The translations under genes and the position numbers were made by a program. Below the pieces are notes generated by a model. The model made no database searches. It saw only the letters and a list, made by a program, of their open reading frames with translations, and had not been told where the DNA came from. This document shows, piece after piece, positions 12,940 through 34,451 of a stretch of DNA of 64,000 bases. Source of the DNA: an uncultured virus (IMG/VR IMGVR_UViG_3300029288_000087) (lineage: Duplodnaviria > Heunggongvirae > Uroviricota > Caudoviricetes); the IMG/VR virus record IMGVR_UViG_3300029288_000087. One strand, given 5' to 3'. The stretch's first letter is position 1; every line of letters starts with the position of its first letter.

Positions 12940-15035
12940 CACTCTTCCCTCAACACTTCCGCCAGCGTCCCCTGCTTCTCGGTCCCCATGAGCCTCGCCA
13001 GGATCTCCGCTGGCAACTGCTTGTGGTAGCGGGGCAGGATGCGCTTGGCGAGTGCGACCTCGCCGTCTGTCAGCTGCCTTCGCTTGGCGATCTCTGCGAC
13101 GCGCCTGCCCATGTGAGCGTGCGCTCCGGAGAACCCCATGCCGTCCCTCTGGCGAGCCCCGTCGCACAGCGCCGAGACCGCCAGGAAGCCCGCAGAGGCC
13201 GCTCCGCGCTCTTCGTCCGTCGCCACGGGCCAGACGATCTTGGGAGGCTTCGGAGGCTCCACGGGGCCAATGCGAGCAGCCGCGGTGTGCTCCAAGGCAG
13301 CGTCCGCGATCTGTTGCTTGCGAATGACCTTGGCGAGCATTACAGCGTCCAGGCTCTCGTCCACGGCGAGATGCTGGATGAGCACGGCGTTCCGCTGGGA
13401 AATCCTATGAATGCGATCTTCTGCTTGGCTCAGGTCTCCGGGCACCCAGGAGCTTTCGACGAACGCCATGTAGTCGGCTGCGGTCAGGGTGAGCCCGACG
13501 CCCGCCGCTTGGATGCTTCCGATGAACACCCTGATTTTCGGGTCGGACTGGAAGCGGTCCACGATGGCGAGCCGATCGTTCTGCGGAGTCGGGCCGTAGA
13601 CGCACACGGCTTCGCTGCCATAGTGGGCGACAAGCTGCTCGATGACCGCGTGGTGGTGCGCCATGACGACGATCTTGGGCCGCTCCTCCAGGACGAGATC
13701 GAGATGCTCGAACACGGACGGGAGCTTCGCCAGGGCGAGCTTTTGCCGCTCCACCGAGATCGTCTTGAAGTCGATGTCCGCAATGGTCTGGCAGAGCCGG
13801 TCGAGCGCCATCTCGTACGCGACCGTGTCCCCGCCCGCTTCGGCCAAGTCCACCTCGGCAGCGAGCACATCGATCTGCCCGCTCTGCTTCGTCCATGCGG
13901 CGTGCTCCGCCTTGACCGCGGCAGACGCGCCCGTGGGCGGGAGGAACACGATTTGTCTGGTTTTCTTCGGCAAAAAGGGCAAAACGTCGGACTTTGCGCG
14001 TCGGATCATTACCGTCGATCTCATGCGTTCTTGCAGTTCTTCGAGGCGGCTCGCGCCGTCCGTGTGCCACACCTCGCGCGTGAATCCGCCTCGGACTCGG
14101 ATGGTCTCCTTCACAGCGCCGCAGTAGCGCATCAGGAACGGCCATTCCAGGTTCCAGGTGACCGGGTCCAGGGCGTGCAGCAGCGGCCATAGCTCCTTCG
14201 GGCGGTTGGGCAGCGGCGTGCCCGTCAGGAACAGCGCGCGCTTGGCTTGGTTGATCAGTCCAAGCTGGGCAGGCTCCGCGGGTCTGCCTCGCTTCTTGTC
14301 CTCGCGTTTGCCCTTCTTGCCCAGGATGACTTCGCTCCGTTGTGCGGTGCCCGTCTTCATGCGGTGAGCTTCGTCCACGATGAGAAGGCCCCAGGTCCGA
14401 GCCATCAGCGCTGCGCGGAGCTGGGCTGCACGCGGGCCGACAAGCCGCTCGTAGTTGACGATGACGAGATCGTTGCGAGGATGCGGAGGATCGTTCGACT
14501 CCACAACGTGGATGAGCCGTGGGCGCACGAGCCACTTCTCTGCCTCGCGCTTCCACAACAGGCGCAGGCTTGCCGGGCAGATGACGAGGATGCTGCCCAT
14601 GTTGGGCACGGCATTGGCGACTCCGAGCGCCTCCACGGTTTTGCCAGTGCCACAAGAATCCGCCAGCAGCACATTCCTGCGCGCCAGCGCGTACTCGACG
14701 GCGGCAAGTTGGTACGGGTAGTATTCGCACCCGGGCGGCGCAGGCACTTCGAGCTTGCTGTCCGCGGCCTTGCTCGCCTCGACGGTGCGGTAGTGATCCG
14801 CCAGCGAGTAGATCGCGGACTCGGCGAGGTACTTCTCCGCTCGGGAGGCCACCGTCTTGTCGGCGGTGAACCAGATGCGCGGCTCCATGTGAGCCTTGCA
14901 GGCTTCGCAGGCGTGGTAGCAGCGCTCGTCGCCGAAGTGGAAGTGGAAGCCCAGGCTCTTGAGATACTCGCGCGCGGGAACGTCGTCGAAACGAATCTGC
15001 GCGTAGTAGATGCCGTGGCTGAACTCGATCTTCAT
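12939..15035 (-). CDS. SNF2-family (HARP/SMARCAL1-like) helicase
   Basis: LLADSCGTGKT (Walker A), LIVDEAH (II), LTGTPLPN (III), AAGVGLTLT and QAEDRIHRISQ (V/VI); likely start MKIEFSHG. Confidence 0.9.
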   Translation of the reverse strand: MKIEFSHGIYYAQIRFDDVPAREYLKSLGFHFHFGDERCYHACEACKAHMEPRIWFTADKTVASRAEKYLAESAIYSLADHYRTVEASKAADSKLEVPAPPGCEYYPYQLAAVEYALARRNVLLADSCGTGKTVEALGVANAVPNMGSILVICPASLRLLWKREAEKWLVRPRLIHVVESNDPPHPRNDLVIVNYERLVGPRAAQLRAALMARTWGLLIVDEAHRMKTGTAQRSEVILGKKGKREDKKRGRPAEPAQLGLINQAKRALFLTGTPLPNRPKELWPLLHALDPVTWNLEWPFLMRYCGAVKETIRVRGGFTREVWHTDGASRLEELQERMRSTVMIRRAKSDVLPFLPKKTRQIVFLPPTGASAAVKAEHAAWTKQSGQIDVLAAEVDLAEAGGDTVAYEMALDRLCQTIADIDFKTISVERQKLALAKLPSVFEHLDLVLEERPKIVVMAHHHAVIEQLVAHYGSEAVCVYGPTPQNDRLAIVDRFQSDPKIRVFIGSIQAAGVGLTLTAADYMAFVESSWVPGDLSQAEDRIHRISQRNAVLIQHLAVDESLDAVMLAKVIRKQQIADAALEHTAAARIGPVEPPKPPKIVWPVATDEERGAASAGFLAVSALCDGARQRDGMGFSGAHAHMGRRVAEIAKRRQLTDGEVALAKRILPRYHKQLPAEILARLMGTEKQGTLAEVLREE

Positions 15036-21419: not shown

Positions 21420-24400
21420 TTACGCCGCCTTTTTCTGCTCGGGGACGATCTCCCAGTATTGGAATCCGCCGCACTTGGTGCAGCAGCACGTCACGTCCTG
21501 CTTCTCGGTCCCCATCACGACAAGCTCGCCGCCGCACTTGCAGGCTGCCAGCACGCCCCCTGAGCGAGCCCGCGAGGCCCGTTCGACGGTGTTCTCCGAC
21601 GTGGCCTTGCCCTTGCCCCACACGGGCTTGTCCTTGGCATCATCCCACCGACCGATCCGTCTGTACTTCATCTGCTTGCTCCTTCCGCTGTCTGACCATA
21701 ACCACCACGCTGGCGGTGTCAACGACTTTTACGCGATCGTATACTCCCCAACAAGTACGGCACGATACCGCTCTCGCATGAAAGCAGCTCTTCGGCGCGC
21801 TCCGTCAGCCCGGCCTTGTCCCGCACGTCCACCCAACAGCGCTCGGTGTAGTTCCAGGGCGACCACACGCCGATGACCGCGCCGCCGCAGGCGTTCGCCT
21901 CCAACCTGAAGGTCACGCCGTCCGTGGTCCCCTCGTGCGCCAACGACTCGGCCAGCTCAACGTTGAGGTCGATGTCCGTGTCGTCCACGGGCTCGCCCGT
22001 CTTCGATGCGAGCCGAATGACGGTGCCCCACTTGTAGTCGTCGCAGGACATGTCCTCCGGGGCGTCCACCGTCAGCCCCTTGTCCCGCAGCCCCGTCGCG
22101 AGCCGTTCCAGGAACGCCAGTATCTTGGGGCCGTAGCTCTTGGCGATCCGCTCGGTCGCCTTGGAGTACTTCTCCTCAGTCATGGGGCGTGTCATTCGCC
22201 CAGCCTCCACACCTCGTGTGCACCAGCCATCAGCAGAGCCCGGTGGACGCAGGCATAGGACCAGTCTGCCAGTGCTGACGCGCTCCACACGGGGCACCGC
22301 TGACAAACGACGTTGGTGTCACGAAGGTGGCGGTAGATGTCCCCGATCGCCATCCCTGGTGCCACAGAAAGCAGCGACCGGACGGCTTTCGTCAGCGCTA
22401 CCCGTTCCTCCTCGGGCAGCCCCTTCGGCCAGCCGTGTCCGTCGCGCTCCACGTCCGTCAGGTACTTTTCCACATAGGTGAGATTCATCGGCTTGCTCCT
22501 GCCATACGTGTATGGCGACTCAATCCTCCCAGATCAGGGTGCCGCCCCGCGGGAGCTTCTGTGGCAACTGCTCGACGGGCAGACCAAACGCCTCCGCAAT
22601 CTTGGGCAACCAGGACTTCCACTTCTCATGGCCGATCCTTCCCTCGCCAGCGTCACCATAGCGGCTCAGGTGGTCCTGCTCGCGGGAGTCTTTCGAGCCC
22701 AGCATCCAACATGGCCCGTAGTAGGACTGGCACCCGACACCACTCCAGCCGACATGCCCGCGCGTCTTGCAGACACAAACCTTGCCCCTGCGCAGCACCA
22801 CGTCCCGCTCGGTTCCGTAGTCGGTCCCCAGCGAATGCCTCGAAAGCGTTTCCCTACTGGCTCGCTTCACCCACGGCATGGCTACTCGGCCTCCACCAGC
22901 TTGTAGAGCTTCTCTCCGACCTTCACGCGCACCTCGAACGAATCGGGGAACCTACGCGCAAGCTCCAGCGCACCCTCGGCAGTCTCGAACGTGCAGGTGG
23001 GCTTGTTGTCATACCGCTCCTGAAGCAGCGGCACCCTGGCACGAAGCGCTGTACTGTCCGGGCTCAGGGTATCCAGCAGGAGCACCGTCTTCTCCCTCAT
23101 GTCCAGCCACAGCGTCCCGTCCTCGCAGCGTGGAGGGATCCCTCCGCTATCATCTCCGATGGCGAAGCGCCCGCTCGGCACGTGCAGCCACAGCTTGTGG
23201 CCTCGCGCACAGAGCCTTCCCATGTACCGCCACGACACGTGCCTCTCCGGTCCAACCGCGGTTGTCGTTGCCATCACACCATCTCCTCGAATCCGCTCGC
23301 TGACATCTCGTCCGCAAGCTCGCCCTCGAACGTCTTGCCGCAGGTGCACGTCACCGTGTAGCTGGCGTGGACTCCGTAGTACGTCGTGCGGTAGCGCATC
23401 GGAGTCGTCGGCTTCAGCCCCCGCGAGTCCTCGGTGGACTCGTACTCGCCTTCGATGGACAGCTCGTGCTCGCCCTCCGGAGCATCCTTGTGCTCCTCCA
23501 TGTGCTCACGCACGGCGTCATCCTGGCCCTCCAGCTCGAACTCTGCCGACTTGAGTCCCTGACTGCACTCGCCGCAGCGCTTCTCCAGCGTCACCTGGAT
23601 GTTGATGTTGCCCTCGTCGTCCACTTCGCAGGACTGCTCTTCGGGCTCTTCGTCACCCTCGTACGATACGAACTTGTTGCAATCAGGACACCGCATCGCT
23701 TGCTCCCTTCAACGAACCTGACATAACCATCGCACCGGGCGGCGCAAGGGCTAGTCGTCGGAATCATCCTGGCCGGGCTTCCAGGTGCCGCTTGCGCCGG
23801 TCGCGTGCACCATCTCCAGGAAGCGCTGTGCTGCCTCGGGAGAGATACGCAGCCAGCCGCCATCCCTGTAGCTGTCCGCGTACGCCTCGAACCCACGATC
23901 GCGCAGCCCGTCACGCAGCCCGTCTACGCGCCGCTTGAGTGCCTCGTACTCGGCTTGCTCCTTGGCGTCCTCTGCCCGCTCCTCTTGCGGGTAGAACCGG
24001 ACCTCGCCCCTGCGCCCCAGAGCAACCTCCCCAGCCGCAGCGAGTCGCTTGATCGAGCCGCGCACCTGGGCAAGGCTCAGGGCTGTAGAGTGTGTCAGCC
24101 ACCGGGCGCTAGTGCGCCCCAGCCTGCCGCCTTGGGGGCACTTCGCCTTGTCCTCTTCGTACTCCTTGACCAGCGAGCGCAGCACAGCTGCGTCCACTTG
24201 CTTCAACCACTCTTTGGTCTTCGCCATAGCTTGCTCCTTCGACCAGCCTGACATAACCATCGCACCGGGCGGCGCAAGGGGCTACGTCGTCAAACCCAAA
24301 CGCTTCGCCGCGTCGTCGAGCGACTCGATCGTGAGGTTGCTGGGCAGCGCCGAATAGATGTTCCACCCGTTGCGGTTGCCCCGGACCGTGATGATCGCGA

Positions 24401-24866
24401 CGTGGCCTGTGCTGAACTGCCACGCCTCGACGTAGGCGGAAGGCGACTCGGGATCGCCCATCGGCAGTTGCCACTGGCAGCGCGCATCGTGGTCGTCAAG
24501 CCACCGTTGCAGCTCCGGGTAGTTGCTTACCCACGGCTTGTCGCTGTTGTCCTTGTCTCTGGTTGTTCTGGATCTCGGTCGTGACATGTTGCCTCCTCAT
24601 CCGCAGTGCGACAGCTCGCACCACTCGTTTGGGTTCTCGGGCACCGCGTCGCCGCAGGCCTTCAAGAACGCCTCGATCTGTCCCTGCTCTTGCACCGTGT
24701 ACGTGTACCACCAGCCAGGACAGCCCAGCCAGAGCCACTCGCCACGGTGCTCCGTCATGATGTCTGCCGGTTGCTGCCCAGGCCGCATCGCGTAGGGAAT
24801 ACCCCACAGCGAAAGTGTGTCCGCTTGCCTGAACAGCACCCGGATTCTCGCTAGCTTCTCTAGCAT
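21420..24866 (-). CDS. Run of small hypothetical genes (21420-21671, 21719-~22195, 22192-22488, 22520-22879, 22882-~23274, 23274-23696, 23751-24227, 24282-24587, 24597-24866)
   Basis: Co-oriented short ORFs, several with GGAGCAAGC-type RBS. Confidence 0.6.
21695..21722 (-). promoter_or_regulatory. Putative sigma70-type promoter
   Basis: Minus strand TTGACA-16-TATGGT upstream of RBS AAGGAGCAAGC. Confidence 0.55.
23717..24280 (-). repeat. Identical 34-bp direct repeats (23717-23750 and 24247-24280) flanking one gene; promoter-like
   Basis: CCTGACATAACCATCGCACCGGGCGGCGCAAGGG occurs twice; minus strand reads TTGCGC-16-TATGTC and shares TGGTTATG with the promoters at 21.7 kb and 38.3 kb. Confidence 0.85.
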
Positions 24867-24913
24867 CTTACCCTCCTGTGTCGCGGGGATGACATTGCTC
24901 CTGCTCCCAGTGT

Positions 24914-25330
24914 TCACAGCAGCGCGGGGATAGTTCCTGCCTTCGCTGCTGCGAGAACCGTGTCGATCACTTGCTGCGCCCATCCGCCCGGGTAGCCGCG
25001 CATGACTTTGATGACGGGCTCGCTGTGGATGAAACGCCAGCCGTCCCAATCGGGCGACCAGAACTTGTCCCATCCGACCTTGACGTTGAAAGCATGGACC
25101 GGCGACCACCCCTCACGGGCGGCGTTGAGAATCGCGGTGCCCAGGTTCAGGTAGAACCCGAATGAGCCACCGTAGTCGCCGCACTGGAGCGTGACGCGCC
25201 AGCATGCGATCGGCACCTCCGCCTCGGGCGGGTAGTTTTTCAGCAGCGTGTCAAAATCCTGCCTTGTGAGGCGCGGCAGCTTCGGCACCTCGTCCAGCCT
25301 CTTGAACTTCTTACTGTCCACTCGAATCAT
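24914..25330 (-). CDS. Array gene 16, hypothetical (MIRVDSKK...)
   Basis: Start directly after the leader motif. Confidence 0.75.
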   Translation of the reverse strand: MIRVDSKKFKRLDEVPKLPRLTRQDFDTLLKNYPPEAEVPIACWRVTLQCGDYGGSFGFYLNLGTAILNAAREGWSPVHAFNVKVGWDKFWSPDWDGWRFIHSEPVIKVMRGYPGGWAQQVIDTVLAAAKAGTIPALL

Positions 25331-25392
25331 TGACTTGCTCCTGCTTGTGGCGGGATGATTCCCGCAACGGTGCCGCCGGGTGGCGGCTGTGC

Positions 25393-25701
25393 TCAGCGGA
25401 AGAACTTCGCCTTCGGGTACATCGCCAGCACCTGATTTCTGGCGTCCTCCCGACTCTTGGCTCGCAGCGTACCGTCGATCGTGCAGTCGTCGTTGGCAAA
25501 CCAGTAGATCGGCGTGCCAAACCCGAAGTACGTGCCGTTTTCGTCGTAGGCACCGTCTGCACTCATGCGCACCTTGCGCAGCGTGATCTTGCCCGAGAAG
25601 GTAGGAGGCCCCTCCCATGTTCCGCGGCCCATTGCTGCGCCGCGTTTGGGGTCTCCGCACCATCCCTTGGGGTCGTGCGTCTTGTAGCTCGGTCTCGACA
25701 T
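25393..25701 (-). CDS. Array gene 15, hypothetical (MSRPSYKT...)
   Basis: Start directly after the leader motif. Confidence 0.75.
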   Translation of the reverse strand: MSRPSYKTHDPKGWCGDPKRGAAMGRGTWEGPPTFSGKITLRKVRMSADGAYDENGTYFGFGTPIYWFANDDCTIDGTLRAKSREDARNQVLAMYPKAKFFR

Positions 25702-25767
25702 GACTTGCTCCTGCGTTGTGGGGCATCGTAGCCCCGTTGGTGCCGCAGGCGAACCTGCGGCTTCGGT

Positions 25768-26169
25768 TCAGATGTCCCTGGCGGGAAGGTCTGCGATCAC
25801 GTAGTCGGCCATGCGGTCGTCACCGATGACGCCCGCTACGCGACGGATCGCTCGGATTGTTGCCTCCTCATCGGGCTTGCCATGCGTAGCCCCGTTCGCA
25901 GGCGGGATGAGGTATCCAGCCTGCGAACCGCGCCAGCCAGCGGGGACGCCCCTCGGTCCGCTCTCCAGCATGCCGTAGACGAGCCTGCGCCCGTCTCCGG
26001 GCTGCCGCACCTTGATCCACCAAACGCGATTGGCTTGGCACTCGTGCTCACCATTGTAGTCGTGAGCGCTCGCGATCACAGGCCAATCCTTGGCGACGAT
26101 ACGCACAGGGTTTTCGTCCGAAAGCGCGACGACGATCTTCTTTTCCGTGGTGGTGGTCTTTTCTGACAT
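25768..26169 (-). CDS. Array gene 14, hypothetical
   Basis: Start directly after a leader motif variant (AGCAGGAGTACGTC). Confidence 0.75.
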   Translation of the reverse strand: MSEKTTTTEKKIVVALSDENPVRIVAKDWPVIASAHDYNGEHECQANRVWWIKVRQPGDGRRLVYGMLESGPRGVPAGWRGSQAGYLIPPANGATHGKPDEEATIRAIRRVAGVIGDDRMADYVIADLPARDI

Positions 26170-26234
26170 GACGTACTCCTGCTTTAGCGTGGCTTGATTG
26201 CCACGGTAGTGCCTGGGCCATCCCAGGCTGCTAG

Positions 26235-26441
26235 CTACTCCACCTCGGTGTAGACGGTGCGTTTTGTCGCCAGCACCATCGGCTCACCGCAGCACGTGAA
26301 CACGTGGTCCTTGGGAGCGTCCCAGTAGTCCCCTGCGTTCGCGCTGTTTTCCGCACCGCACACATTACAGAGAAGGAAGGGGTGCGGGCCGGGCACACCG
26401 ATCTGGTTCTTCAGATCCGCGACTGTGACTTTGTTGCTCAT
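26235..26441 (-). CDS. Array gene 13, small Zn-ribbon-like protein
   Basis: CNVC...CCG; leader motif. Confidence 0.75.
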   Translation of the reverse strand: MSNKVTVADLKNQIGVPGPHPFLLCNVCGAENSANAGDYWDAPKDHVFTCCGEPMVLATKRTVYTEVE

Positions 26442-26516
26442 TGACTTGCTCCTGCTACTCGCGGCGACATTGCCGCAATGGTGCTACCCGGCCACGACGG
26501 GGCTGGTAGCGGTAGG

Positions 26517-26927
26517 TCAGCGGTGGAACTCCTCGAAGGGGCAGCGTCCGCTGGGAACGGGAGTGTAGCCTGTGCTCACGGCATCGTCCCAGGTGAGCCC
26601 GCAGGTGCCGCACGTCATGGGATCCTTGGCTTCGTCCCCGGGCTTGACCGGCTGCACCGGGAAGTCTGGAGGGACCACCACGGTGTGTGTGGCGGGCACT
26701 GGCTCTTCGTCCATCTCATCCACGACGGAGATGTCTCGCCCGTCGTTGTCGGTCGGGTAGCTCGGGTAGCAGCGCCCGTTGAGCGTCTTGCCCCACGTAG
26801 TGGGAACGTCGAAGCCCTCTTCGTTCTCGTCCATGAGATCGTTGGCGAGCTTCATCGCCTGCTCTTCTGTCTCGGCTGCCACGTCGAAACAGAGCCATGC
26901 CTTGGCTTGGCATCGGTATGTTTTCAC
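26517..26927 (-). CDS. Array gene 12, acidic hypothetical protein with C-terminal CxxC
   Basis: GTG start after the leader motif. Confidence 0.75.
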   Translation of the reverse strand: MKTYRCQAKAWLCFDVAAETEEQAMKLANDLMDENEEGFDVPTTWGKTLNGRCYPSYPTDNDGRDISVVDEMDEEPVPATHTVVVPPDFPVQPVKPGDEAKDPMTCGTCGLTWDDAVSTGYTPVPSGRCPFEEFHR

Positions 26928-26987
26928 GTTGTTGCTCCTGCTTTGTGCGGGTCTCCCCGCGTTGGTGCCGCCGTGTGGCGGCTCGAC

Positions 26988-27215
26988 TCATGCCCCTTGC
27001 ACTCGCTTGGCGAAGTCCTTGAGCGCTTCCTCGTACTTGCTGAAGTAGTGCCCCCACACGTACTCGCTGTGCTCCATTTCGTGGGTGAGCACTTCGACGT
27101 GCGTGACGTACGGCTCGATGCCGTTGCCGATCTTGCGCAGCACGACGCGCGAAGGAAGTTGCTGCCCCTTGATACCGGGACTTATGGGGCCTTCGGCCAG
27201 ATGCCTTTGTTCCAT
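26988..27215 (-). CDS. Array gene 11, hypothetical
   Basis: Leader motif; WGHYF motif. Confidence 0.75.
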   Translation of the reverse strand: MEQRHLAEGPISPGIKGQQLPSRVVLRKIGNGIEPYVTHVEVLTHEMEHSEYVWGHYFSKYEEALKDFAKRVQGA

Positions 27216-27277
27216 GACGATTGCTCCTGCTTGGTGCGGGTCTCCCCGCGTTGGTGCCGCCGTGTGGCGGCTGGCAG

Positions 27278-28141
27278 CTACGCTGCCGCGCTGTTGAGGT
27301 GCCCGGGTAGCATCCCCGCAGCGAAGCCCAGGCGGCGGTAGATGTACGCCGTGAGGAGCTTGGTGAGCCGCTCGCGTCCGTACTTCGCCCAGTACCCATC
27401 CGCTGCCACGCCCTGTTCCCAGAGCGCGTGCAGCACGCTGTGAACCGGCCTCGGCATGTGCCCAGGCCCGCCAGCTTCGTTGATCGCGTTCATCAGCATG
27501 CTGGGCACGTAGTAGGGTTCCTCCATGTGGCCCAGGATGTGGCTCTTGGGGTCACCGTCGAGCACGGGCTTGCCGCTCTTGTCCTTCATGAGGCAGGCCC
27601 AGCAGTCCGCACCCGAAGGCTTGGGAACCTTCAGAGCGAACAGCGCGTCCATGTAGTCGGAGACGAACTTGCGAGCCCGCTTCTTGAGCTTGATGTCGCT
27701 CCGGGTCTTCTTGTCAGTCGCCAGCGGCGCACCCTTGACCTTGCCGGATTCCGTGACGGTCATGCCGTCCGTGAACACGTAGGCCTTGCCAGGAGACGCC
27801 CAGGGGTATTCCCCCGGCTTGTACATCTTGACGTACCAGATCCCGGCATCCGTGTAGATGGCGAGCCCTGCGGGCATCAGCGCGTTCAGACGACCCTTTG
27901 TCGTGGCCGTCTTGAAGCCGCATGACGAGATGATCATGCCGCCCGACTTGCGGAACACGGCGATCTTGCTGCCGAACAAGTGCAACTCGATGTTGCCCGC
28001 GTTCAGGCAGACCGACGTGTTCTCGCTCAGCTTGCGAGTCGTGACCGGCTTGCCGCGACTCATCAGCAGTGTCCCGCCGATGACGCGGAAGAAGGTCTCG
28101 CCTCGCTTGTACTTCCTTCCTCCGAAATTCAACTTGTCCAT
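27278..28141 (-). CDS. Array gene 10, hypothetical (MDKLNFGG...)
   Basis: Leader motif; GFKTATTKGRLNAL motif seen in phage proteins. Confidence 0.75.
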   Translation of the reverse strand: MDKLNFGGRKYKRGETFFRVIGGTLLMSRGKPVTTRKLSENTSVCLNAGNIELHLFGSKIAVFRKSGGMIISSCGFKTATTKGRLNALMPAGLAIYTDAGIWYVKMYKPGEYPWASPGKAYVFTDGMTVTESGKVKGAPLATDKKTRSDIKLKKRARKFVSDYMDALFALKVPKPSGADCWACLMKDKSGKPVLDGDPKSHILGHMEEPYYVPSMLMNAINEAGGPGHMPRPVHSVLHALWEQGVAADGYWAKYGRERLTKLLTAYIYRRLGFAAGMLPGHLNSAAA

Positions 28142-28221
28142 GACTTTGCTCCTGCTTGGTGAGGGGACATCCCCTCGTTGGTGCCAGCCTAACCATGAAC
28201 GGTCAGGTGGCAAGAGGCGGG

Positions 28222-28887
28222 TCAGTCGCGAGCCCAGCAACCGGGCAGCGTGACCGTTTCGGGCAGGGACTTCAGGAAGGCGATCACGTCCTCCGGGACT
28301 TCCTCGTACAGCCATTGGCTGCCGTACTTGTATCCACACTCCGGGCACGGCTTGTTCAGCAAGCCCTTGGGATGCTCTTCTGGGCGCACCCATCCCGTGG
28401 CCTTGGTTTCCCTCTTGTGTACCCGGTAAAAGGAAACGTCCAAAGGATGAAGCGTGCTCAAGGGCAGTGACAGAAGGAACCGCTGTCGCTCTGTCACGGC
28501 GGTCGAGCCGTTCTTGACCAGCTCCGCGACGCCGGATTCCACCAGATTGTTCCGCGCAGTGTAATGCTCAGTCTTGAGCATGTACTCGATCACTTCTACC
28601 TTTTCGGTCACATCCCAATCCTTGCGCTGGTGCTCGCAACCGGCTCGCATGTCGTTCAGGTGCCAGCGGTTCCACACCTCTGCCAGCTTGGCGACATCAA
28701 TCCCCGGGAACGGCTGGGTGACGTTGACCAGATCGATCTGACCGCAGCCACCCTTCGCATCACCATTACTCAGCGGTCCTTCAACGCCGGTCAGAGAGAG
28801 GCGCTTTCCGTCCCACTTGATGGTCACGAAGACCTTGCCGCAGTCACCTGTGCCCACCAGCACATGCTTTGTGAATGGTTCGATCAT
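28222..28887 (-). CDS. Array gene 9, hypothetical (MIEPFTKH...)
   Basis: Leader motif; WNRWHLNDMRAGC and CPECGYKYGSQW motifs. Confidence 0.75.
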   Translation of the reverse strand: MIEPFTKHVLVGTGDCGKVFVTIKWDGKRLSLTGVEGPLSNGDAKGGCGQIDLVNVTQPFPGIDVAKLAEVWNRWHLNDMRAGCEHQRKDWDVTEKVEVIEYMLKTEHYTARNNLVESGVAELVKNGSTAVTERQRFLLSLPLSTLHPLDVSFYRVHKRETKATGWVRPEEHPKGLLNKPCPECGYKYGSQWLYEEVPEDVIAFLKSLPETVTLPGCWARD

Positions 28888-28957
28888 TGACTTGCTCCTG
28901 CTTGTGGCGGGATGATTCCCGCAACGGTGAGCACGCCGGGGAGGCGCGCTCGTAAGG

Positions 28958-29467
28958 TCAAACGGCTGCGCGCTCGCTGCGAAGCTCATTGACCAGCGCT
29001 CGACGGTGAAGATCGGCTTTGTAGTACCGATCACAGTTGTACGTGTTCAGCATGGCTTCGCGGATCCGGTACCACGCTTGCTCTTCGCTGGCCTCGGAGC
29101 GACCCTGCCACGTCCGCTCGACTTCAGGAATCGGCGTGACGTAGGCGTTGACGATCGCCCAGTTGTCTTCTGGCCTGCCGTTGAACGAGATCGCGGGCGC
29201 GAGGCCGAATCCGCAGCCGGGTGCGCCGAGCGATCCCATGGTCTCACACGTGTCAGCGTCCAGGCCGCACTGCTCGACGAACTTGTCGAACTGCTTGCGG
29301 GTGAGGATGGCGCAATACTTGCGATGCTTCCCGTGAGGGAATACCTCGCTGTAGTCCGCGCTCTCATCGCCCTCTGTGCATTGCCACTGCCGAATGCACG
29401 GTGGCCTGTACTCCGAGACGCTAGCTCCGCGCGCTATGTCAAACGAGTAGATGACTGAGAACTTCAT
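28958..29467 (-). CDS. Array gene 8, hypothetical
   Basis: Leader motif. Confidence 0.75.
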   Translation of the reverse strand: MKFSVIYSFDIARGASVSEYRPPCIRQWQCTEGDESADYSEVFPHGKHRKYCAILTRKQFDKFVEQCGLDADTCETMGSLGAPGCGFGLAPAISFNGRPEDNWAIVNAYVTPIPEVERTWQGRSEASEEQAWYRIREAMLNTYNCDRYYKADLHRRALVNELRSERAAV

Positions 29468-29538
29468 TGTGACTTGCTCCTGCTTGTGCGTGGCACCATG
29501 CCACGTTGGCGCGTGCGCTTGCGGCGCACGCTTGGATG

Positions 29539-29961
29539 CTACGGAAGCAGCATCGCGCAGATGTACAGGTAGCCGTAGCTCGCGTTCGGAGTCGCCACGA
29601 GGCGAACGCCGTTCTCTTCGATCTCAATCAGATCGCGACTGTCAGGGCTCACGTACTTGCTCGCCACGCGCTTGTGCAGCTTGTCCAGCAGCCCGGAGTC
29701 CCCGTTGAGCCTCTTCTGAAGATCCGGCCACCGGGACTGGTCGCCATCGGCCCCTTGCCGATTCGGCACGAGGTCCACGGACTGAACCAGCTTCTTGTCC
29801 TCGATGATGCGCGTGCGCCCGCCGACACGTTTGCGAATGCGCTGCGTTTGGTAGCTCGACTGAAGGATCGCTCGCGCGCCCCAGGCGACTGCGCAGTCAC
29901 GGTCAACGAGCCAGCCGCACCATGCGGGCTTGGGCCTGCTTGCGTTCTTCTCTTCTTCCAT
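29539..29961 (-). CDS. Array gene 7, hypothetical (MEEEKNAS...)
   Basis: Leader motif; C-terminal ATPNASYGYLYI. Confidence 0.75.
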   Translation of the reverse strand: MEEEKNASRPKPAWCGWLVDRDCAVAWGARAILQSSYQTQRIRKRVGGRTRIIEDKKLVQSVDLVPNRQGADGDQSRWPDLQKRLNGDSGLLDKLHKRVASKYVSPDSRDLIEIEENGVRLVATPNASYGYLYICAMLLP

Positions 29962-30038
29962 TGACTTTGCTCCTGCTTGTGGTGCGGGCACCATACCCGC
30001 CCTAGTGCCTCGCCGCTTCCTCACGGCGAGGCAGGCTT

Positions 30039-30416
30039 CTACTTGCTCCCTTCTCCCTGGCCGACATGTGCCCGCAAGCGCAGGAGCGTCCACCCTGCGG
30101 ACTTGCGGCCTGAGTATCGGCGACCATCGATCATGGTCGCAAAGCACTGCACCACGACGGGGCAGTACGCGCCCGGAGGGTGAATGCGGTAGCGCCCAGT
30201 CAGAGCCAGCGGCGCAATGATCTTGTCGCCAGCCCAGTTCTTGAGCACAAACCGCCCGCCCTCCTCGCAGACGTGGCCGATGACCACGCCTTGGGTATGA
30301 TCCACAACCGGGCCGATAGAGGAGAACTGCGTCCCGTTGTGTTCAACGAAACCGATCTCCACCTGCGCTCCGGTCGCGGTCACACCGCTTTCGGAATGAA
30401 AGGTTGTCTTGTCCAT
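30039..30416 (-). CDS. Array gene 6, hypothetical (MDKTTFHS...)
   Basis: Leader motif. Confidence 0.75.
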   Translation of the reverse strand: MDKTTFHSESGVTATGAQVEIGFVEHNGTQFSSIGPVVDHTQGVVIGHVCEEGGRFVLKNWAGDKIIAPLALTGRYRIHPPGAYCPVVVQCFATMIDGRRYSGRKSAGWTLLRLRAHVGQGEGSK

Positions 30417-30491
30417 TCGACTTGCTCCTGCTTGTGCGTGGCACCATGCCACGTTAGCGCCATCGTAGCGAGCTGGCTAGATGGCGGGCGG

Positions 30492-30626
30492 TCAAATCTC
30501 CGTGTATGCCACAGACACTTGACGCCCCGGGTATTTTGCCTGGGCCTTCCTCTCCGCGTCGTTGTGCGACTTGGCTCTGATCATTCCCACCTCTTCCCCG
30601 TCCACGTATACGATATATACCTTCAT
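30492..30626 (-). CDS. Array gene 5, 44-aa protein absent from the ORF track (MKVYIVYVDGEEVGMIRAKSHNDAERKAQAKYPGRQVSVAYTEI)
   Basis: Translated by hand; exactly fills the space between two leader units. Confidence 0.75.
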   Translation of the reverse strand: MKVYIVYVDGEEVGMIRAKSHNDAERKAQAKYPGRQVSVAYTEI

Positions 30627-30722
30627 TCGACTTTTGCTCCTGCTATGGTGCGGGACCATGCCCGCCCTGGTGCATGCGCGCGCGAACGCGCATGCGAGGG
30701 ATTGTGCTGCTGTGGTGGGATA

Positions 30723-31883
30723 CTAGGCGGCGAGCGCTTGGGAGAAAATCTTGCCCGCGAACCGTTCCAGGTCGAGCACGTCGTCGCCGATCTGCGCCGA
30801 GCGTGCCTTGCGGGGCGCACCAGCGAGTGCCTTCGCCTCGATGTCCTGGCTGAGAGCCGACACGGCCTGCGCCGCATCGAGCCAGGAGATGCCCTTGCCG
30901 AGCGTGTGAGGCACGCGCGGGTCGGCGCTCTGCACCATTTCGACGACGCGCTTCGCCATGTCCTGGGAGACCTGACCCTTGAGGATCGTGTTCAAGCGGT
31001 CCACGGTCAGTTCCTTCTCACCCGCCGCGTTCAGCGAGTCGAACATCGACTGCCGCCGCTCGGGCAGAAGGAACTGCGATGTGCTGTCCTTGATCATGCT
31101 GATGGTGGCCTCGTGGTCGAGCTTGCGCGTGTCTTGCGACCAGTCCACGTCACGGTCGAGCCGCTGCCCGAGATGCACGCGGCGGAAGATCCGCTCAGTC
31201 GTCATCCCGTTCATGCAGGCCAACCGCAGGAAGAACGCCGTGATGCCCGCTGCCGTGCCGCCCCAGTCCGAATTGCGATACTCGATTCCCAGGACGTAGG
31301 GGTCGCCGCCGACCATCTGCACCTGCGGAATGACCATCTTGATCGCGAACTGGAGATCCGTGCCGGTCGCTGAGAACGGGACCGCGCCCGACTTGTCAGA
31401 GACTTCCAGCACGGTTTCGAGCAAGGGGCGGGTGTCGATCGTGTTGTAGCTGGCGGAGAGAACCGCCATGCCCAGTTCCACGTCGGGCTTCTTGCGCGCG
31501 CGCACGAGGTGAGCCGGGGGCCTGCCGTCCTTGCCGACAAGGTGCGCCCAGTCCGTGTTCAGCACGTTCTGCAAGAGGTCGCGCGCCCAGTCCGTGTCAG
31601 CGTCCAGGCAGGCGTTCGCGAAGTTCGCGTTCACTACCTGACCGATGCCGTACACGTGGCTGAGAGCGTGGTCGTGCAGCACGAGCGTATCGTGCTTGTC
31701 GAGCACCATCTGGACGTTGTTGTCCTGCGTGACCGCGAACTCCACAAGCTCCGCGGGCGCTTTGCGGTCCACCGGCATCTCGCTGAACACGCGCGCGACT
31801 TGCGCCTTCGCGTTCGGGAGGTTCCGATGGATCACTTCGTCCAGGCGTGCCGCCGCCTGTTCTGCCGAAACATTCTGCATCAT
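30723..31883 (-). CDS. Array gene 4, DUF932-like protein
   Basis: VLSASYNTID, RNSDWGGTA, FLRLACMNGM, RRVHLG motifs. Confidence 0.75.
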   Translation of the reverse strand: MMQNVSAEQAAARLDEVIHRNLPNAKAQVARVFSEMPVDRKAPAELVEFAVTQDNNVQMVLDKHDTLVLHDHALSHVYGIGQVVNANFANACLDADTDWARDLLQNVLNTDWAHLVGKDGRPPAHLVRARKKPDVELGMAVLSASYNTIDTRPLLETVLEVSDKSGAVPFSATGTDLQFAIKMVIPQVQMVGGDPYVLGIEYRNSDWGGTAAGITAFFLRLACMNGMTTERIFRRVHLGQRLDRDVDWSQDTRKLDHEATISMIKDSTSQFLLPERRQSMFDSLNAAGEKELTVDRLNTILKGQVSQDMAKRVVEMVQSADPRVPHTLGKGISWLDAAQAVSALSQDIEAKALAGAPRKARSAQIGDDVLDLERFAGKIFSQALAA

Positions 31884-31985
31884 TTGACTTGCTCCTGCTT
31901 TAGTCGGGCCGCGACATGCGACCCGCTTGGTGCCATCCTAACCATTGCTGGCCGGGTGGCAAGGGAGGGCGTGACAGGCAATGTC

Positions 31986-32369
31986 CTAGTCCACGATCTC
32001 AGTGAGCGAGCACTGGAAAATCTCGTGGATGTAGTCCTTGATCTCGCGGCGGTCGCGTCCGGTGATGCGCAGGACGATTCCGTGCACGAGCGAAGCCTTG
32101 ACGATCACGGTGTGCTCGGTCCAGCCATCGTACATGCCAACATCGTTCATGTGGTGGTAGCTGGTATGGATCACCAGCTTCTCGCCAGTGGACGCATCGA
32201 AGTCGAACGTGCATCCGTTGTCGAACCCGGAGCCGTGCGGCAACCTGTTCAGAACGAGCTGCTCAATCGTCTCGCGGTGCTTGACTCGCCATTCCGCATT
32301 GCCCTTCTCGGCACAACGCGCGTAGGCGTCAACGGATGACGCCAGCCTCTTGTAAACTGGCTCTTTCAT
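31986..32369 (-). CDS. Array gene 3, hypothetical (MKEPVYKR...)
   Basis: Leader motif; LPHGSGFD and YHHMNDVGMYDGWTEH motifs. Confidence 0.75.
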   Translation of the reverse strand: MKEPVYKRLASSVDAYARCAEKGNAEWRVKHRETIEQLVLNRLPHGSGFDNGCTFDFDASTGEKLVIHTSYHHMNDVGMYDGWTEHTVIVKASLVHGIVLRITGRDRREIKDYIHEIFQCSLTEIVD

Positions 32370-32444
32370 TGACTTGTGCTCCTGCTTTGTGCGGCGGGAT
32401 TGCCGCATCAGTGCGCGTACCCGTGCGGGCGTACGCGCGTGGGG

Positions 32445-32741
32445 TCAACCGACCCGCTTGGACGCGCCAGCGGTTTCCATCTCCGCCACCAGTGCGCGCA
32501 CCGCAGCGTCGCCACCCTTGTCGCTGTAGACGTGGTGCGGACGCCCGATGCGCCCCTCGAAGTCCCACCCTTCGTAGCCGTCGCGGCGCGCGAAATCGAT
32601 CCGCGTTCCGTCTGCGCGTTCCAGGTAGAACTCTCCGAAGCCCATGTGATGCAGGGTTCCGAAGCGGTTGCAAGCGTTCAGGAAGTCGGAATCCCCGACA
32701 ACCTTCTCGCTTCCATCAATCTGCTTGATCGTGTGAGGCAT
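32445..32741 (-). CDS. Array gene 2, hypothetical (MPHTIKQI...)
   Basis: Leader motif. Confidence 0.75.
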   Translation of the reverse strand: MPHTIKQIDGSEKVVGDSDFLNACNRFGTLHHMGFGEFYLERADGTRIDFARRDGYEGWDFEGRIGRPHHVYSDKGGDAAVRALVAEMETAGASKRVG

Positions 32742-32812
32742 TGACTTGTGCTCCTGCTTTGAGAGGCGGCACCATACCGCCTTCAGTGCGTACGCGGGCG
32801 CGTACGCGAGGC

Positions 32813-33160
32813 TCAGTCCTCTGCGGTCTCTGGACGGGAGAACGGAAGCTGGTGACAGCCGCAACCGTGCGGGCAGCACCATGCTTCCTTGAAGTCGTTT
32901 GTGCAGTTTCGGAGGCGTTCCGCTAGCTCGTAGATTTTGTTCGCCAGGGTTTCGTTGCACAAGCAATCGGCCCCGCAGAGCGCACGCTGGTAGCGGCGTT
33001 CGTCAAAATCAGTCCGAGCGTTCCACCTCGGATGGAAGTAGCCACCGGAGCTTGCTTTCCATTCCGCGTACACCACAAGCAACCACTCGCGCGGCTGATC
33101 GTGAATGTTCTCGTACAGGTCAGCGTATGCCTCCGGTGCGTGAGACCATTCGCATGTCAT
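32813..33160 (-). CDS. Array gene 1, hypothetical (MTCEWSHA...)
   Basis: Leader motif. Confidence 0.75.
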   Translation of the reverse strand: MTCEWSHAPEAYADLYENIHDQPREWLLVVYAEWKASSGGYFHPRWNARTDFDERRYQRALCGADCLCNETLANKIYELAERLRNCTNDFKEAWCCPHGCGCHQLPFSRPETAED

Positions 33161-33197
33161 GGTTTGCTCCTGCGCTGTGCTGACGGAATTGTCAGCG

Positions 33198-33328
33198 GTC
33201 GGTACCCGGGAATCGAACCCGGATCTCGCGGCACCAGTTACGGTGTCGCGTGACAGCTTGCTCCTAGGCGCGTCAAACGCACCATGCCCGGCGGTCAGAT
33301 GCCCCGTCAGGCCTTTTGGCTATACCGA
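33198..33328 (-). ncRNA. tRNA-like RNA with expanded anticodon region (not a canonical tRNA)
   Basis: Acceptor TCGGTAT/GTACCGA, mini D-arm GCC-AAAA-GGC, stem TGACGG/CTGTCA enclosing ~50 nt, long variable arm, T-arm CCGGG-TTCGATT-CCCGG; no encoded CCA. Confidence 0.7.
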
Positions 33329-33329
33329 T

Positions 33330-34260
33330 TTTGAGGTTGCTGGCGACAGGTTGACTATTGTCGCCAGAGAGCCCCTGCCCACGTCTTAGCGTGAGCGGCA
33401 GGAGCAGGAGCGGGATCTACTTCCCCCACCACGCTGGTATGCCCAGTCACGGGCGCGTGATGGTTTCGGAACCTGCCTGGAAGCCGTACGGTCAAAAGCC
33501 CCGGGCTATCATGCGGCAGGCTCGCGCAGCTTGGAGCAGCGCGACGATCCAAAATGTCATCCCCGTTGAATTCGATTCACGTTGCCGGTTCACCTCAGTA
33601 GCAGCGGTCCGATTTGGCATGCGTCCCCATGGACAGCCGCGGACTTGCTTGCCCCCCGTCAAAGACAAGGGGCTGAGTTTACCCGGTACGCGGGATAGTA
33701 GCTCTAGCCGGAACGGAATCTCTCCCGTGGCCCGCGGGTATCAGCCGCAGCGCCCTGCGCGTAGGACGGCTCAGGCGATCTGAGGGACGGAGCCCAGAGG
33801 CGCAGTCACGCCGCACGGTACGCCGTGCGGTTAGGCGAGCACCGCTTGTCCGTTCGCTTGTCGGTTCCGCTTGCTAGTCTTGCTTCAGGCGTTCACGGAT
33901 CCAGGAGTCCACGCGAGACCTTGAGCCTTACCGAGCCGCCAAAAGCGACCCCTATACGCGCCGGTCCGAACGGAAACCTGCCCGGTTCCCTGGTGAGGGG
34001 AGGACTTGCGCGCCCCAAATGCTGGCGCAGCAGCGGTCACATGGGCCGGGTAGACCCGTGGCAGCCATCCGCTCGACTAGCGCGCGTTGCCGCGTCGCAA
34101 TCGGGGCAGATGTTGCCCTATTGCTTGCAGGGTACGCCCCGCAAGGCTGGCGTGGTCCGGTCAAGGGCACCGGCTAGGCTCACCCCACAACAGGCAGGCT
34201 CGCCAGGGGAGCCGCCCCGCCAACCGGGGCCGCGCTCCACCCTGTTGTTGTCCTGCACCC
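33330..34260. ncRNA. Putative large structured non-coding RNA region
   Basis: No convincing ORF over ~0.9 kb in an otherwise packed genome; many inverted repeats; contains the split match to the array leader motif; strand unresolved. Confidence 0.55.
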
Positions 34261-34279
34261 CACCCCCTCCCCTCCTATA

Positions 34280-34350
34280 CGTGGCGATAGTGTTTCGCTA
34301 TCAGCGCGTACAGGGGGTACATCGTGGCGATAGTGCACTGGTATAGTGTA
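34280..34350 (-). promoter_or_regulatory. Repeated CGTGGCGATAGTG boxes (34280-34292, 34323-34335; partial ATAGTG near 34343): candidate promoters/operators of the ncRNA-array unit
   Basis: Exact 13-bp direct repeat in an AT-richer patch; minus strand reads CACTATCGCCACG. Confidence 0.5.
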
Positions 34351-34451
34351 TCGTATTGCAGCGTCACGCGGTGTATTGTGAGGTGGTGTGATGTATCGCT
34401 GGAGCTTGCTGTCCAGCTTGGGAACGGAGCGCGCAGGGAGCGCGTGCGACG

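Follow-up and report, generated by a model that had tools for sequence, protein, structure and literature searches.

Start-associated tags and repeated early-region cassettes have been described since 2010–2011, and their mechanism is still described as open (PMC12699233). Among them are the start-associated sequences (SAS) of Cluster K mycobacteriophages, whose function a 2025 survey of 188 Cluster K genomes, in its passages on the motif, still calls unverified (PMC12699233), and the extended start-associated sequences (ESAS) of the same phages, given in the relevant part of an earlier account as 17-bp imperfect inverted repeats that have a subcluster consensus and whose departures do not support RNA pairing (PMC3203893). 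A further point of reference is the c4 antisense RNA of phages P1 and P7, which belongs to the c4-icd-ant operon in the outline given in PMC8198154. Here, we analyze a related locus in a 64,000-nt window of the IMG/VR virus record IMGVR_UViG_3300029288_000087 (Caudoviricetes). The window comprises bases 62001–126000 of a 134-kb contig (62.7% GC) that looks like an uncultured, high-GC phage or phage-like mobile element. On its minus strand, a long non-coding head, the putative leader, precedes 16 tagged cassette genes (genes 1–16), and a further copy of the tag that has no gene of its own, hereafter the orphan, lies between gene 16 and the untagged genes 17 and 18.

The central finding is a two-part match between the orphan and the head. 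Two head segments of 13 and 11 nt, separated by 141 nt, are exact complements of neighboring stretches of the orphan, contiguous on the target and ordered in the leader as antiparallel pairing requires. We tentatively interpret the orphan as the unit of a recombination junction, kept as a docking site for the leader RNA over the translation signals of gene 17. Judged from sequence and folding models, this reading has somewhat less than an even chance of being right, and we rank it ahead of, in descending order, an inert recombination scar, a short upstream open reading frame (ORF) that couples translation by itself, a protein-binding site and a DNA-level inversion. The elements concerned are:

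24884..24908, minus strand: the orphan, a 25-mer (GGGAGCAGGAGCAATGTCATCCCCG), a start-associated tag without a gene.
33553..33565, minus strand: leader segment 1, CGGGGATGACATT, exact complement of 24896–24884, with two matches in the window against 0.08 expected.
33401..33411, minus strand: leader segment 2, GCTCCTGCTCC, exact complement of 24907–24897.
33412..33552, minus strand: the 141-nt insert between the two segments, predicted to fold independently into several hairpins.
33161..34451, minus strand: the non-coding head, 1291 nt, with GC content flat at the three codon positions.
24914..33174, minus strand: the 16 cassette genes (44–386 aa), each preceded by hairpin A, hairpin B and the tag.
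24917–24953, minus strand: a hairpin with an 11-bp stem that overlaps the gene 16 stop codon, its end 8 nt upstream of the orphan's AGCAGGAGCAA core.
24860..24895, minus strand: an upstream ORF of 11 codons, translated as MSSPRHRRVRC.
24885..24890, minus strand: AUCCCC, predicted by the minimum free energy (MFE) fold to pair with GGAGGG of gene 17, and inside the part complementary to leader segment 1.
24597..24866, minus strand: gene 17 (89 aa), with a coding-like GC content of 0.79 at third codon positions and its own AGGAGGG at 24877–24871.
24587–24282, minus strand: gene 18, with an ordinary ribosome site.

The tag belongs to a well-defined repeat family. Its units follow one layout, namely AGCAGGAGCAA, 0–3 bases, GTCA, 0–2 bases and a start codon, which is ATG for 15 array genes and GTG for one. 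With at most one mismatch, AGCAGGAGCAA matches 20 times in the window against 1.49 expected, a count that none of 100 shuffles reached, and 16 of these matches are minus-strand copies within 24895–33174. The tag is present at every one of the 16 array genes, at 15 of them within one mismatch of AGCAGGAGCAA and at the remaining one with two. Two hairpins are found in each of the 15 intergenic regions. The array has one true relative, a 9.9-kb metagenome contig (L054) with an overlapping contig of 2.6 kb (L046), which keeps the tag on 11 units together with the same hairpin architecture. Hairpin B, of 5–7 bp and ending 1–6 nt before the tag, is present in all 27 gene-linked units of the two genomes; equivalent stem positions show G-C, C-G, U-A and A-U, such that the sequence varies and the pairing is kept by two-sided changes. 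Therefore, the structure is under selection, in RNA or in single-stranded DNA.

The orphan (core copy at 24905) closes the AGCAGGAGCAA..GTCA subfamily and begins 5 nt past the TGA of gene 16 (24914–25330, minus strand). It is identical to the gene 10 unit at 17 of 18 positions through GTCAT, lacks hairpin B, and has ATC at the position where 4 of the 16 units carry ATG (GTCATG), the ATG of the 11-codon ORF lying 5 nt upstream. The 25-mer ends 17 nt, and the tag core 29 nt, before the start of gene 17. This start is secure, since all six homologues found for gene 17 begin within a few residues of the Met at 24866; for the same reason, we rejected the idea that gene 17 originally started at the in-frame ATC of the tag. 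A sequence-only reading had described the 25-mer, the 11-aa ORF (24895..24860) and gene 17 with its own AGGAGGG, all of which are indeed in the sequence, and had called the orphan the only perfect guide target; it is in fact the sole place on the 134-kb contig exactly complementary to both leader segments. The suggestion of an empty site likewise fits the 17-nt distance to gene 17 and the existence of a gene-less unit in the relative, while a decayed gene start is untenable because those 17 nt leave no room for one. Two other statements hold in part: the absence of hairpins applies to the stretch between the gene 16 stop and the tag, where hairpin B is missing, but not to the 11-bp-stem hairpin at 24953–24917 just upstream; and the site is terminal for the AGCAGGAGCAA..GTCA subfamily only, as cassettes of a second subfamily run on to ~21.7 kb. 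The simplest origin for the orphan would be recombination at the point where the AGCAGGAGCAA..GTCA cassettes meet the 17–18 block, which left an 'empty' unit there.

How rare is the complementarity? With the site fixed, 24 of the 25 bases are covered, and 5000 dinucleotide-shuffled heads gave at most 20 covered bases and no 13-mer. When any site in the 8.9-kb body was allowed, a covered run of at least 24 bases arose in 9 of 3000 shuffles, and in the real sequence the best head-complementary site of those 8.9 kb coincides with the one gene-less unit. The match includes nine positions outside the family consensus (TCCCCG among them). At the level of sequence, the remarkable point is thus the combination of two adjacent, ordered matches on the one gene-less unit with those nine non-consensus positions; to explain it by chance, one would have to accept odds of about 1 in 1000 or lower.

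Folding calculations favor the same site. The predicted binding of segment 1 is -23.7 kcal/mol at the orphan versus -4.8 to -9.5 kcal/mol at the 16 other units. No other anti-tag in the 1.29-kb head is as strong as segment 2, which could contact any of the units at -19 to -24 kcal/mol and whose 3' part is an arm of a local 9-bp leader hairpin. In the MFE co-fold, the clasp forms with 12 bp from segment 1 and 11 bp from segment 2, and the insert folds alone. The co-fold free energy difference is -23.1 kcal/mol for the orphan versus -10.4 to -17.9 for the other units, and -20.8 versus -7.9 to -15.0 kcal/mol with a longer leader context. Thus, the earlier proposal that the site pairs with the head RNA has in silico support, from the 13 + 11 nt of ordered exact complements, the shuffles and the co-fold preference. 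The insert contains a block, GGGCTTTTGAC..TTCCGA, that is common to the relative, and L054 has a similar first segment (CGGGTGATGACAAC) the same ~65 nt upstream of the shared GGGCTTTTGAC block; the segment arrangement is therefore probably old and the perfect match unlikely to be a neutral relic. Along the same lines, given that the remainder of the head can no longer be aligned, a neutral relic of a duplication would be expected to contain mismatches. The insert as a repeated mobile element was rejected, as it has no second copy in the 3.57-Mb bin to which the contig is assigned.

In the docking-site reading, a gene-less 5' unit would have been left at the junction, and the 17–18 block would have brought its own ordinary ribosome sites. 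If the leader is transcribed and the pairing takes place in vivo, the orphan's 24 bases would pair with the two leader segments in 13 bp and 11 bp, with the folded 141-nt insert holding the segments side by side to give a three-way junction. Within this duplex, both GGAG boxes of the orphan would be hidden along with the ATG of the 11-codon ORF, and AUCCCC would be drawn off the GGAGGG of gene 17, freeing its Shine–Dalgarno site; the duplex may also offer ~24 bp of double-stranded RNA for processing. In this way, the leader RNA, acting in cis on read-through transcripts or in trans, could set the passage of expression from the tagged cassettes to genes 17–18.

Several points weigh against a docking site. 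A second, unrelated 13-nt complement between head and body (34147/30817) shows that single matches of this length arise by chance, and the orphan was partly chosen because of its leader match. The leader fold is not unusually stable (z -1.4), segment 1 is of only average accessibility, and segment 2 is mostly paired within the leader in larger contexts (unpaired probability 0.15–0.17). In L054, the second segment has four extra bases (GCTCCTCTCTGCT) though the tag is unchanged, and the best anti-tag is located elsewhere, so the leader anti-tag is not conserved. The complement of L054's two segments (4078–4065 and 3968–3956) was not found in the 12.4 kb available, contigs that end before the point equivalent to the orphan. 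Neither head nor array has an Rfam family, and 8.5 kb is a long distance for contact in cis; moreover, because of internal promoters at 31962 and 28213, many orphan-bearing transcripts would lack the leader in cis. A 10-nt complement between the head of L054 and its gene-less unit was set aside as probably chance, being one of seven such matches and lying upstream of the iteron block described below.

The strongest alternative, possible but on balance unlikely, is that the tag is an inert scar left by the recombination or deletion that joined the cassettes to the 17–18 block, and that its leader match is coincidental. Cassettes at this locus are evidently gained, lost and moved at their units. 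In the relative, the homologues of genes 4, 6, 1 and 10 (74, 65, 44 and 53% identity) stand in a different order with different neighbors, and the upstream unit moves with the downstream gene, as seen by comparing the units before genes 4 and 10 in both genomes; the array thus consists of cassettes shuffled at structured 5' units. The contig encodes the recombination proteins YqaJ and RecT, and the relative has a gene-less unit of its own with decayed hairpins:

L054 3010–3140, minus strand: gene-less unit with the tag AGCAGGAGCCACGTCATG (3091), overlapping the stop of the first array gene.

Another tag without a gene occurs outside the window at C3 43564–43610 (minus strand), where a run of minus-strand genes ends; there, a hairpin with an 11-bp stem is followed by CACTCAAGCAGGAGCAAGCTG, and a start codon is lacking. 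The ATC of the orphan at the consensus start position, in the absence of hairpin B, is what a scar would look like, and the 9 of 3000 shuffles together with the one other chance 13-mer leave room for coincidence. What speaks against a scar is that the top head-complementary site in 8.9 kb is precisely the one gene-less unit, and that both halves are exact and ordered, the nine non-consensus positions included, in a head that has otherwise diverged beyond alignment.

The 11-codon ORF offers a different role, one in which the leader is not involved and which we consider improbable. The tag would load ribosomes on this ORF, and their translation would melt the hairpin masking the Shine–Dalgarno site of gene 17; with the same low probability, the untagged 17–18 block would thereby come under whatever controls the tag. 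The arrangement is suggestive: GGGAG sits 8 nt before the ATG, and the orphan's two non-consensus features, GG upstream and T in AATG, create both this box and the start codon. The reading frame crosses the Shine–Dalgarno site of gene 17, the stop TAG (24862–24860) overlaps the gene 17 ATG (24866–24864) in ATGCTAG, an AUCCCC/GGAGGG hairpin is predicted, and all other gene blocks in the region carry a unit. Similarly, the gene-less unit of the relative opens an ORF of 25 codons that passes through the hairpins of the next unit and terminates 10 nt beyond the start codon that follows. Such a coupler, however, does not account for the complementarity to the leader. In addition, short ORFs often end close to a following start by chance, the nearer AGGAG precedes the ATG by just 2 nt, and the masking hairpin is weak (-9 kcal/mol in the predicted fold of the 50-nt stretch from the gene 16 stop to the gene 17 ATG).

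A bolder form of leader pairing extends it to the whole array. In this scheme, a leader RNA with two guide arms, held by the 141-nt insert, would read the start tags, and both arms would lock onto the gene-less copy as a high-affinity anchor or decoy, which would make the tags address labels of an RNA-guided switch of translation or processing. The 11-nt arm could touch all 17 tagged ribosome sites with 9–11 bp each. We consider this scheme a long shot; if true, it would provide the so far unexplained SAS class of motifs in phages with a first mechanism.

Less probable still is a protein-binding tag, in which the tag and hairpin B would form a DNA or RNA site for a phage or host protein, either a stoperator-like repressor or a translational regulator binding a hairpin beside the ribosome site, and the leader segments would be half-copies in the opposite orientation. 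The tag is conserved beyond its Shine–Dalgarno core in two genomes whose proteins are 44–74% identical, and the loops of hairpin B are semi-conserved, often beginning with AAU. For ESAS, Pope et al. (2011) favor protein binding in the part of their paper concerned, which also mentions a single reverse-oriented SAS without a gene start in four Cluster K phages (PMC3203893). Yet the leader match extends into non-consensus bases (TCCCCG), the leader copy cannot be one protein site because it is split by 141 nt, and no regulator is among the Pfam and PHROGs results. Finally, it is highly improbable that head copy and orphan are DNA-level recombination sites that invert or mobilize the 8.6-kb segment, as an inverted pair flanking that segment and a tyrosine-recombinase-domain protein at 6429–10334 might suggest, since 141 bp interrupt the head copy, the adjacent genes include no recombinase, the orientation of head to array is unchanged in L054, and the contigs of one public DNA run, which may be the source of this DNA, show no inversion joint. 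This run was the only public one listed as holding the DNA, and no RNA run was among the holders. The contigs of the run break at the repeated units, as expected; a joint of 25394 to 34015 among them was treated as noise, with a 21-base side and unrelated flanks.

Beyond the two segments, the head holds further elements shared with the relative:

34250–34345 in the window and L054 4644–4740, minus strand: a conserved block with two direct CACTATCGCCACG copies, an inverted partial GATAGCG and GGGGGTGGGGTGCAG.
33195–33270 in the window and L054 3672–3765, minus strand: a tRNA-like element just before gene 1, in both genomes.

The promoter/iteron block near 34340–34250 falls within a 211-column BLAST match at 69% identity with L054, and its words (CACTATCGCCACG, GATAGCG and GGGGGTGGGGTGCAG) recur unchanged in the relative; apart from short blocks, the head is otherwise diverged beyond alignment. 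The 34250–34345 block is a candidate operator/promoter or set of origin iterons. The tRNA-like element has a T-arm with the loop UUCGAUU/UUCGACU and a stem that covaries between the genomes (CCGGG/CCCGG versus GGCAG/CUGCC), an anticodon-like arm and, where a D arm would be, a single-stranded AGGAGCAAG. It is not called as a tRNA by ARAGORN; its sequence would suit either a processing signal or an att-like remnant. The head was rejected as protein-coding, with GC flat across codon positions and no PHROGs match, and it had no Rfam match at E up to 1. A conserved secondary structure of the head was also considered and dropped, the two-sequence alignment being too poor.

The genes downstream of the orphan, and the promoters along the array, complete the picture:

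21670..24280, minus strand: cassettes of the second subfamily, with GGAGCAAGC..ATG at 24237, 23706, 22499 and 21682.
38332, 31962, 28213, 24277, 23747 and 21722, minus strand: sigma-70-like TTGNNN-N16-TANNNN repeats in the window.
30492–30626, minus strand: gene 5, a 44-aa ORF (MKVYIVYVDGEEVGMIRAKSHNDAERKAQAKYPGRQVSVAYTEI) with a full unit.

The second-subfamily cassettes follow genes 17–18, several of them behind sigma-70-like promoters. The promoter-like repeat, (C)CCTTGNNN-N16-TANNNN, is also found in the relative (L054 1380 and L046 1374). It sits within TGCCA..TGGCA, an inverted repeat with a conserved ATGGTTA, and resembles a sigma-70 promoter; in some cassettes, it would also serve as hairpin A. 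Over a stretch of 34 nt, the copies at 24277 and 23747 do not differ. Among the 15 units of the first subfamily, two (31962 and 28213) have the repeat, and the orphan has none; a consensus promoter scan gave one promoter-like site on the array strand in 11 kb. The idea that leader pairing loops out the whole array is weakened by these features, as cassettes continue past the site and sigma-70-like promoters lie inside the array at 31962 and 28213.

Family searches, which in effect covered the array genes other than gene 5, left nearly all of them without a known family. No U-tract follows the unit hairpins, and none of eight terminator-like matches falls in a unit. Rfam gave no match in the window at the gathering score; in the array, it gave four matches at E 1.1–7.2, all to eukaryotic, archaeal or animal-virus families and none to a ribozyme. 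Two of these sub-threshold matches overlap hairpins, one at 24916–24952 beside the orphan and the other at hairpin A before gene 8. The units as a known ribozyme were rejected, with no ribozyme-family match even at E up to 10.

The contig belongs to a 205-contig bin, among whose members GC varies. It encodes a YqaJ-like exonuclease, RecT, an AEP-type primase, helicases, a ParB-like protein, a Dam-type methylase, an SLT transglycosylase and many ORFans. Pfam and PHROGs left nearly all genes near the array without a match, and the ORFs flanking head or array contain no integrase or recombinase family. The tyrosine-recombinase domain mentioned above belongs to an outsized protein:

6429–10334, minus strand: an ORF of 1301 aa whose tyrosine-recombinase (Phage_integrase) domain is confined to residues 299–514.

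This ORF, much larger than usual integrases, lies 14.5 kb from the array. In the same bin, the phage-like contig C2 (161,119 bases) repeats a palindromic word around ACACGTGT (GCGAACACGTGT / GCGCACACGTGT) more than 40 times and has a gene 4 paralogue with 32% identity that is preceded by a TTGACA-type promoter.

Searches for kin returned little besides the relative. Megablast of 9.7 kb against GenBank phages gave no match, and tblastn of gene 4 against phages gave nothing above 37.5% identity, with most matches at ~30% or less. A search of 93 genomes of the bin's phylum gave only paralogues from the same bin. A scan of metagenome contigs with the tag 18-mer returned 33 loci. True arrays among them are L054 and L046 only; five others (L033, L052, L053, L059 and L065) share a single unrelated low-GC gene. 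The exact 18-mer gave two single matches in viral contigs and 22 single matches, about the number due to chance, in genome contigs, while the degenerate tag gave ten single matches in viral contigs. In the same viral contigs, the iteron block of the head had no match, gene 4 alone returned no relative, and the gene 17 family appeared in two unrelated contexts only (L116 and L117). A search with the gene-4 alignment yielded 40 loci in viral contigs, all screened for repeated 10-mers and three of them (L076, L088 and L089) read; none has the tag. On L088, which has a gene-4 family member, a G/T-rich non-coding stretch (13600–14800, plus strand) is dense with tandem-like GGTAGGGCAAGGCAGGT repeats.

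Among the described systems, SAS/ESAS is one close counterpart of the array. As in Cluster K mycobacteriophages, where the word measures about 13 bp and stands 3–7 bp before a start codon that is mostly ATG, an asymmetric AGGAG word lies a few bases before the ATG of non-structural genes in one orientation, its conservation goes beyond 16S pairing, inverted repeats lie just upstream, and copies off gene starts are rare, with a single reversed copy. However, the word here is AGCAGGAGCAA..GTCA and shares only the AGGAGC core with the SAS consensus GGGATAGGAGCCC, for which up to two deviations are allowed in the passages that define it (PMC3203893, PMC12699233). Unlike ESAS, hairpin B is a true hairpin of 5–7 bp with compensatory changes, and unlike SAS/ESAS in general, the units form one dense array and the reversed copy is split in two and exactly matches one gene-less copy.

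The array also recalls the promoter early stem-loops (PeSLs) of T4-type phages, where, according to the relevant part of Arbiol et al. (2010), cassettes of stem-loop, Shine–Dalgarno site and start flank small ORFan genes, and relatives differ by gene gain, loss and movement at the cassettes (PMC2839356). A subset of units here similarly has a sigma-70-like promoter within an inverted repeat. In contrast to PeSLs, which have a sigma-70-like promoter in each cassette and a stem-loop that serves as terminator or attenuator, most units, including the orphan, are without a promoter, the hairpins have no U-tract, and the genome is not T4-type.

Another likeness is to L089, an IMG/VR contig of a distant phage with a gene-4 family member, in which small genes each stand behind a structured RNA element and a near-identical ribosome-site word (GGAGCAAGG). 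In L089 (5920–9190, plus strand), this element is a hammerhead-type core, CUGAUGAG..CGAAA..GUC/UUC, followed by an AT-rich spacer and the ribosome-site word GGAGCAAGGATCATG; its Rfam matches are sub-threshold only (Hammerhead_3 and RAGATH-1-hammerhead, both 31.9 bits). Unlike those of L089, the units here match no ribozyme family; the likeness suggests, by analogy, that their hairpins may also serve RNA processing or stability.

At the sequence level, the head resembles P1/P7 c4, an untranslated RNA at an operon head with two short complements to a downstream ribosome-site region. Citron and Schuster reportedly described in 1990 how c4 RNA uses two short complementary stretches and undergoes RNase P processing. 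The c4 target lies within a few hundred bases, compared with 8.5 kb here, and the partner here is a gene-less copy of a tag. Long-range pairing of flanking sequences also forms the processing stalks of rRNA operons, and small RNA decoy sites in polycistronic mRNAs titrate regulators; in both cases, the distances and the bipartite three-way geometry differ. Integrons, which have attI beside IntI and attC sites with paired R/L boxes and a GTTRRRY core, differ in that no IntI-type integrase is adjacent here, the sole tyrosine-recombinase domain being 14.5 kb away, and we rejected the units as attC sites, since they have two separate short hairpins rather than one long imperfect stem. In the invertible segments of Gin, Hin and Cin, the sites are intact (26–34 bp), unlike the head copy, which is split by 141 bp and has no flanking recombinase. 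A limited literature check turned up no account of a leader that matches a gene-less tag in two parts.

In summary, the array resembles both SAS/ESAS and PeSLs but fails defining features of each. If the pairing is not real, the locus is still a clear case of cassette shuffling at structured 5' units. If it is, one leader RNA could gate expression along a multi-kilobase phage operon, and reversed tag copies would be worth looking for elsewhere. To the tags and cassettes described so far, the locus adds covarying hairpins, a gene-less tag over the translation signals of the next block, and an exact two-part mirror of that tag in the leader.

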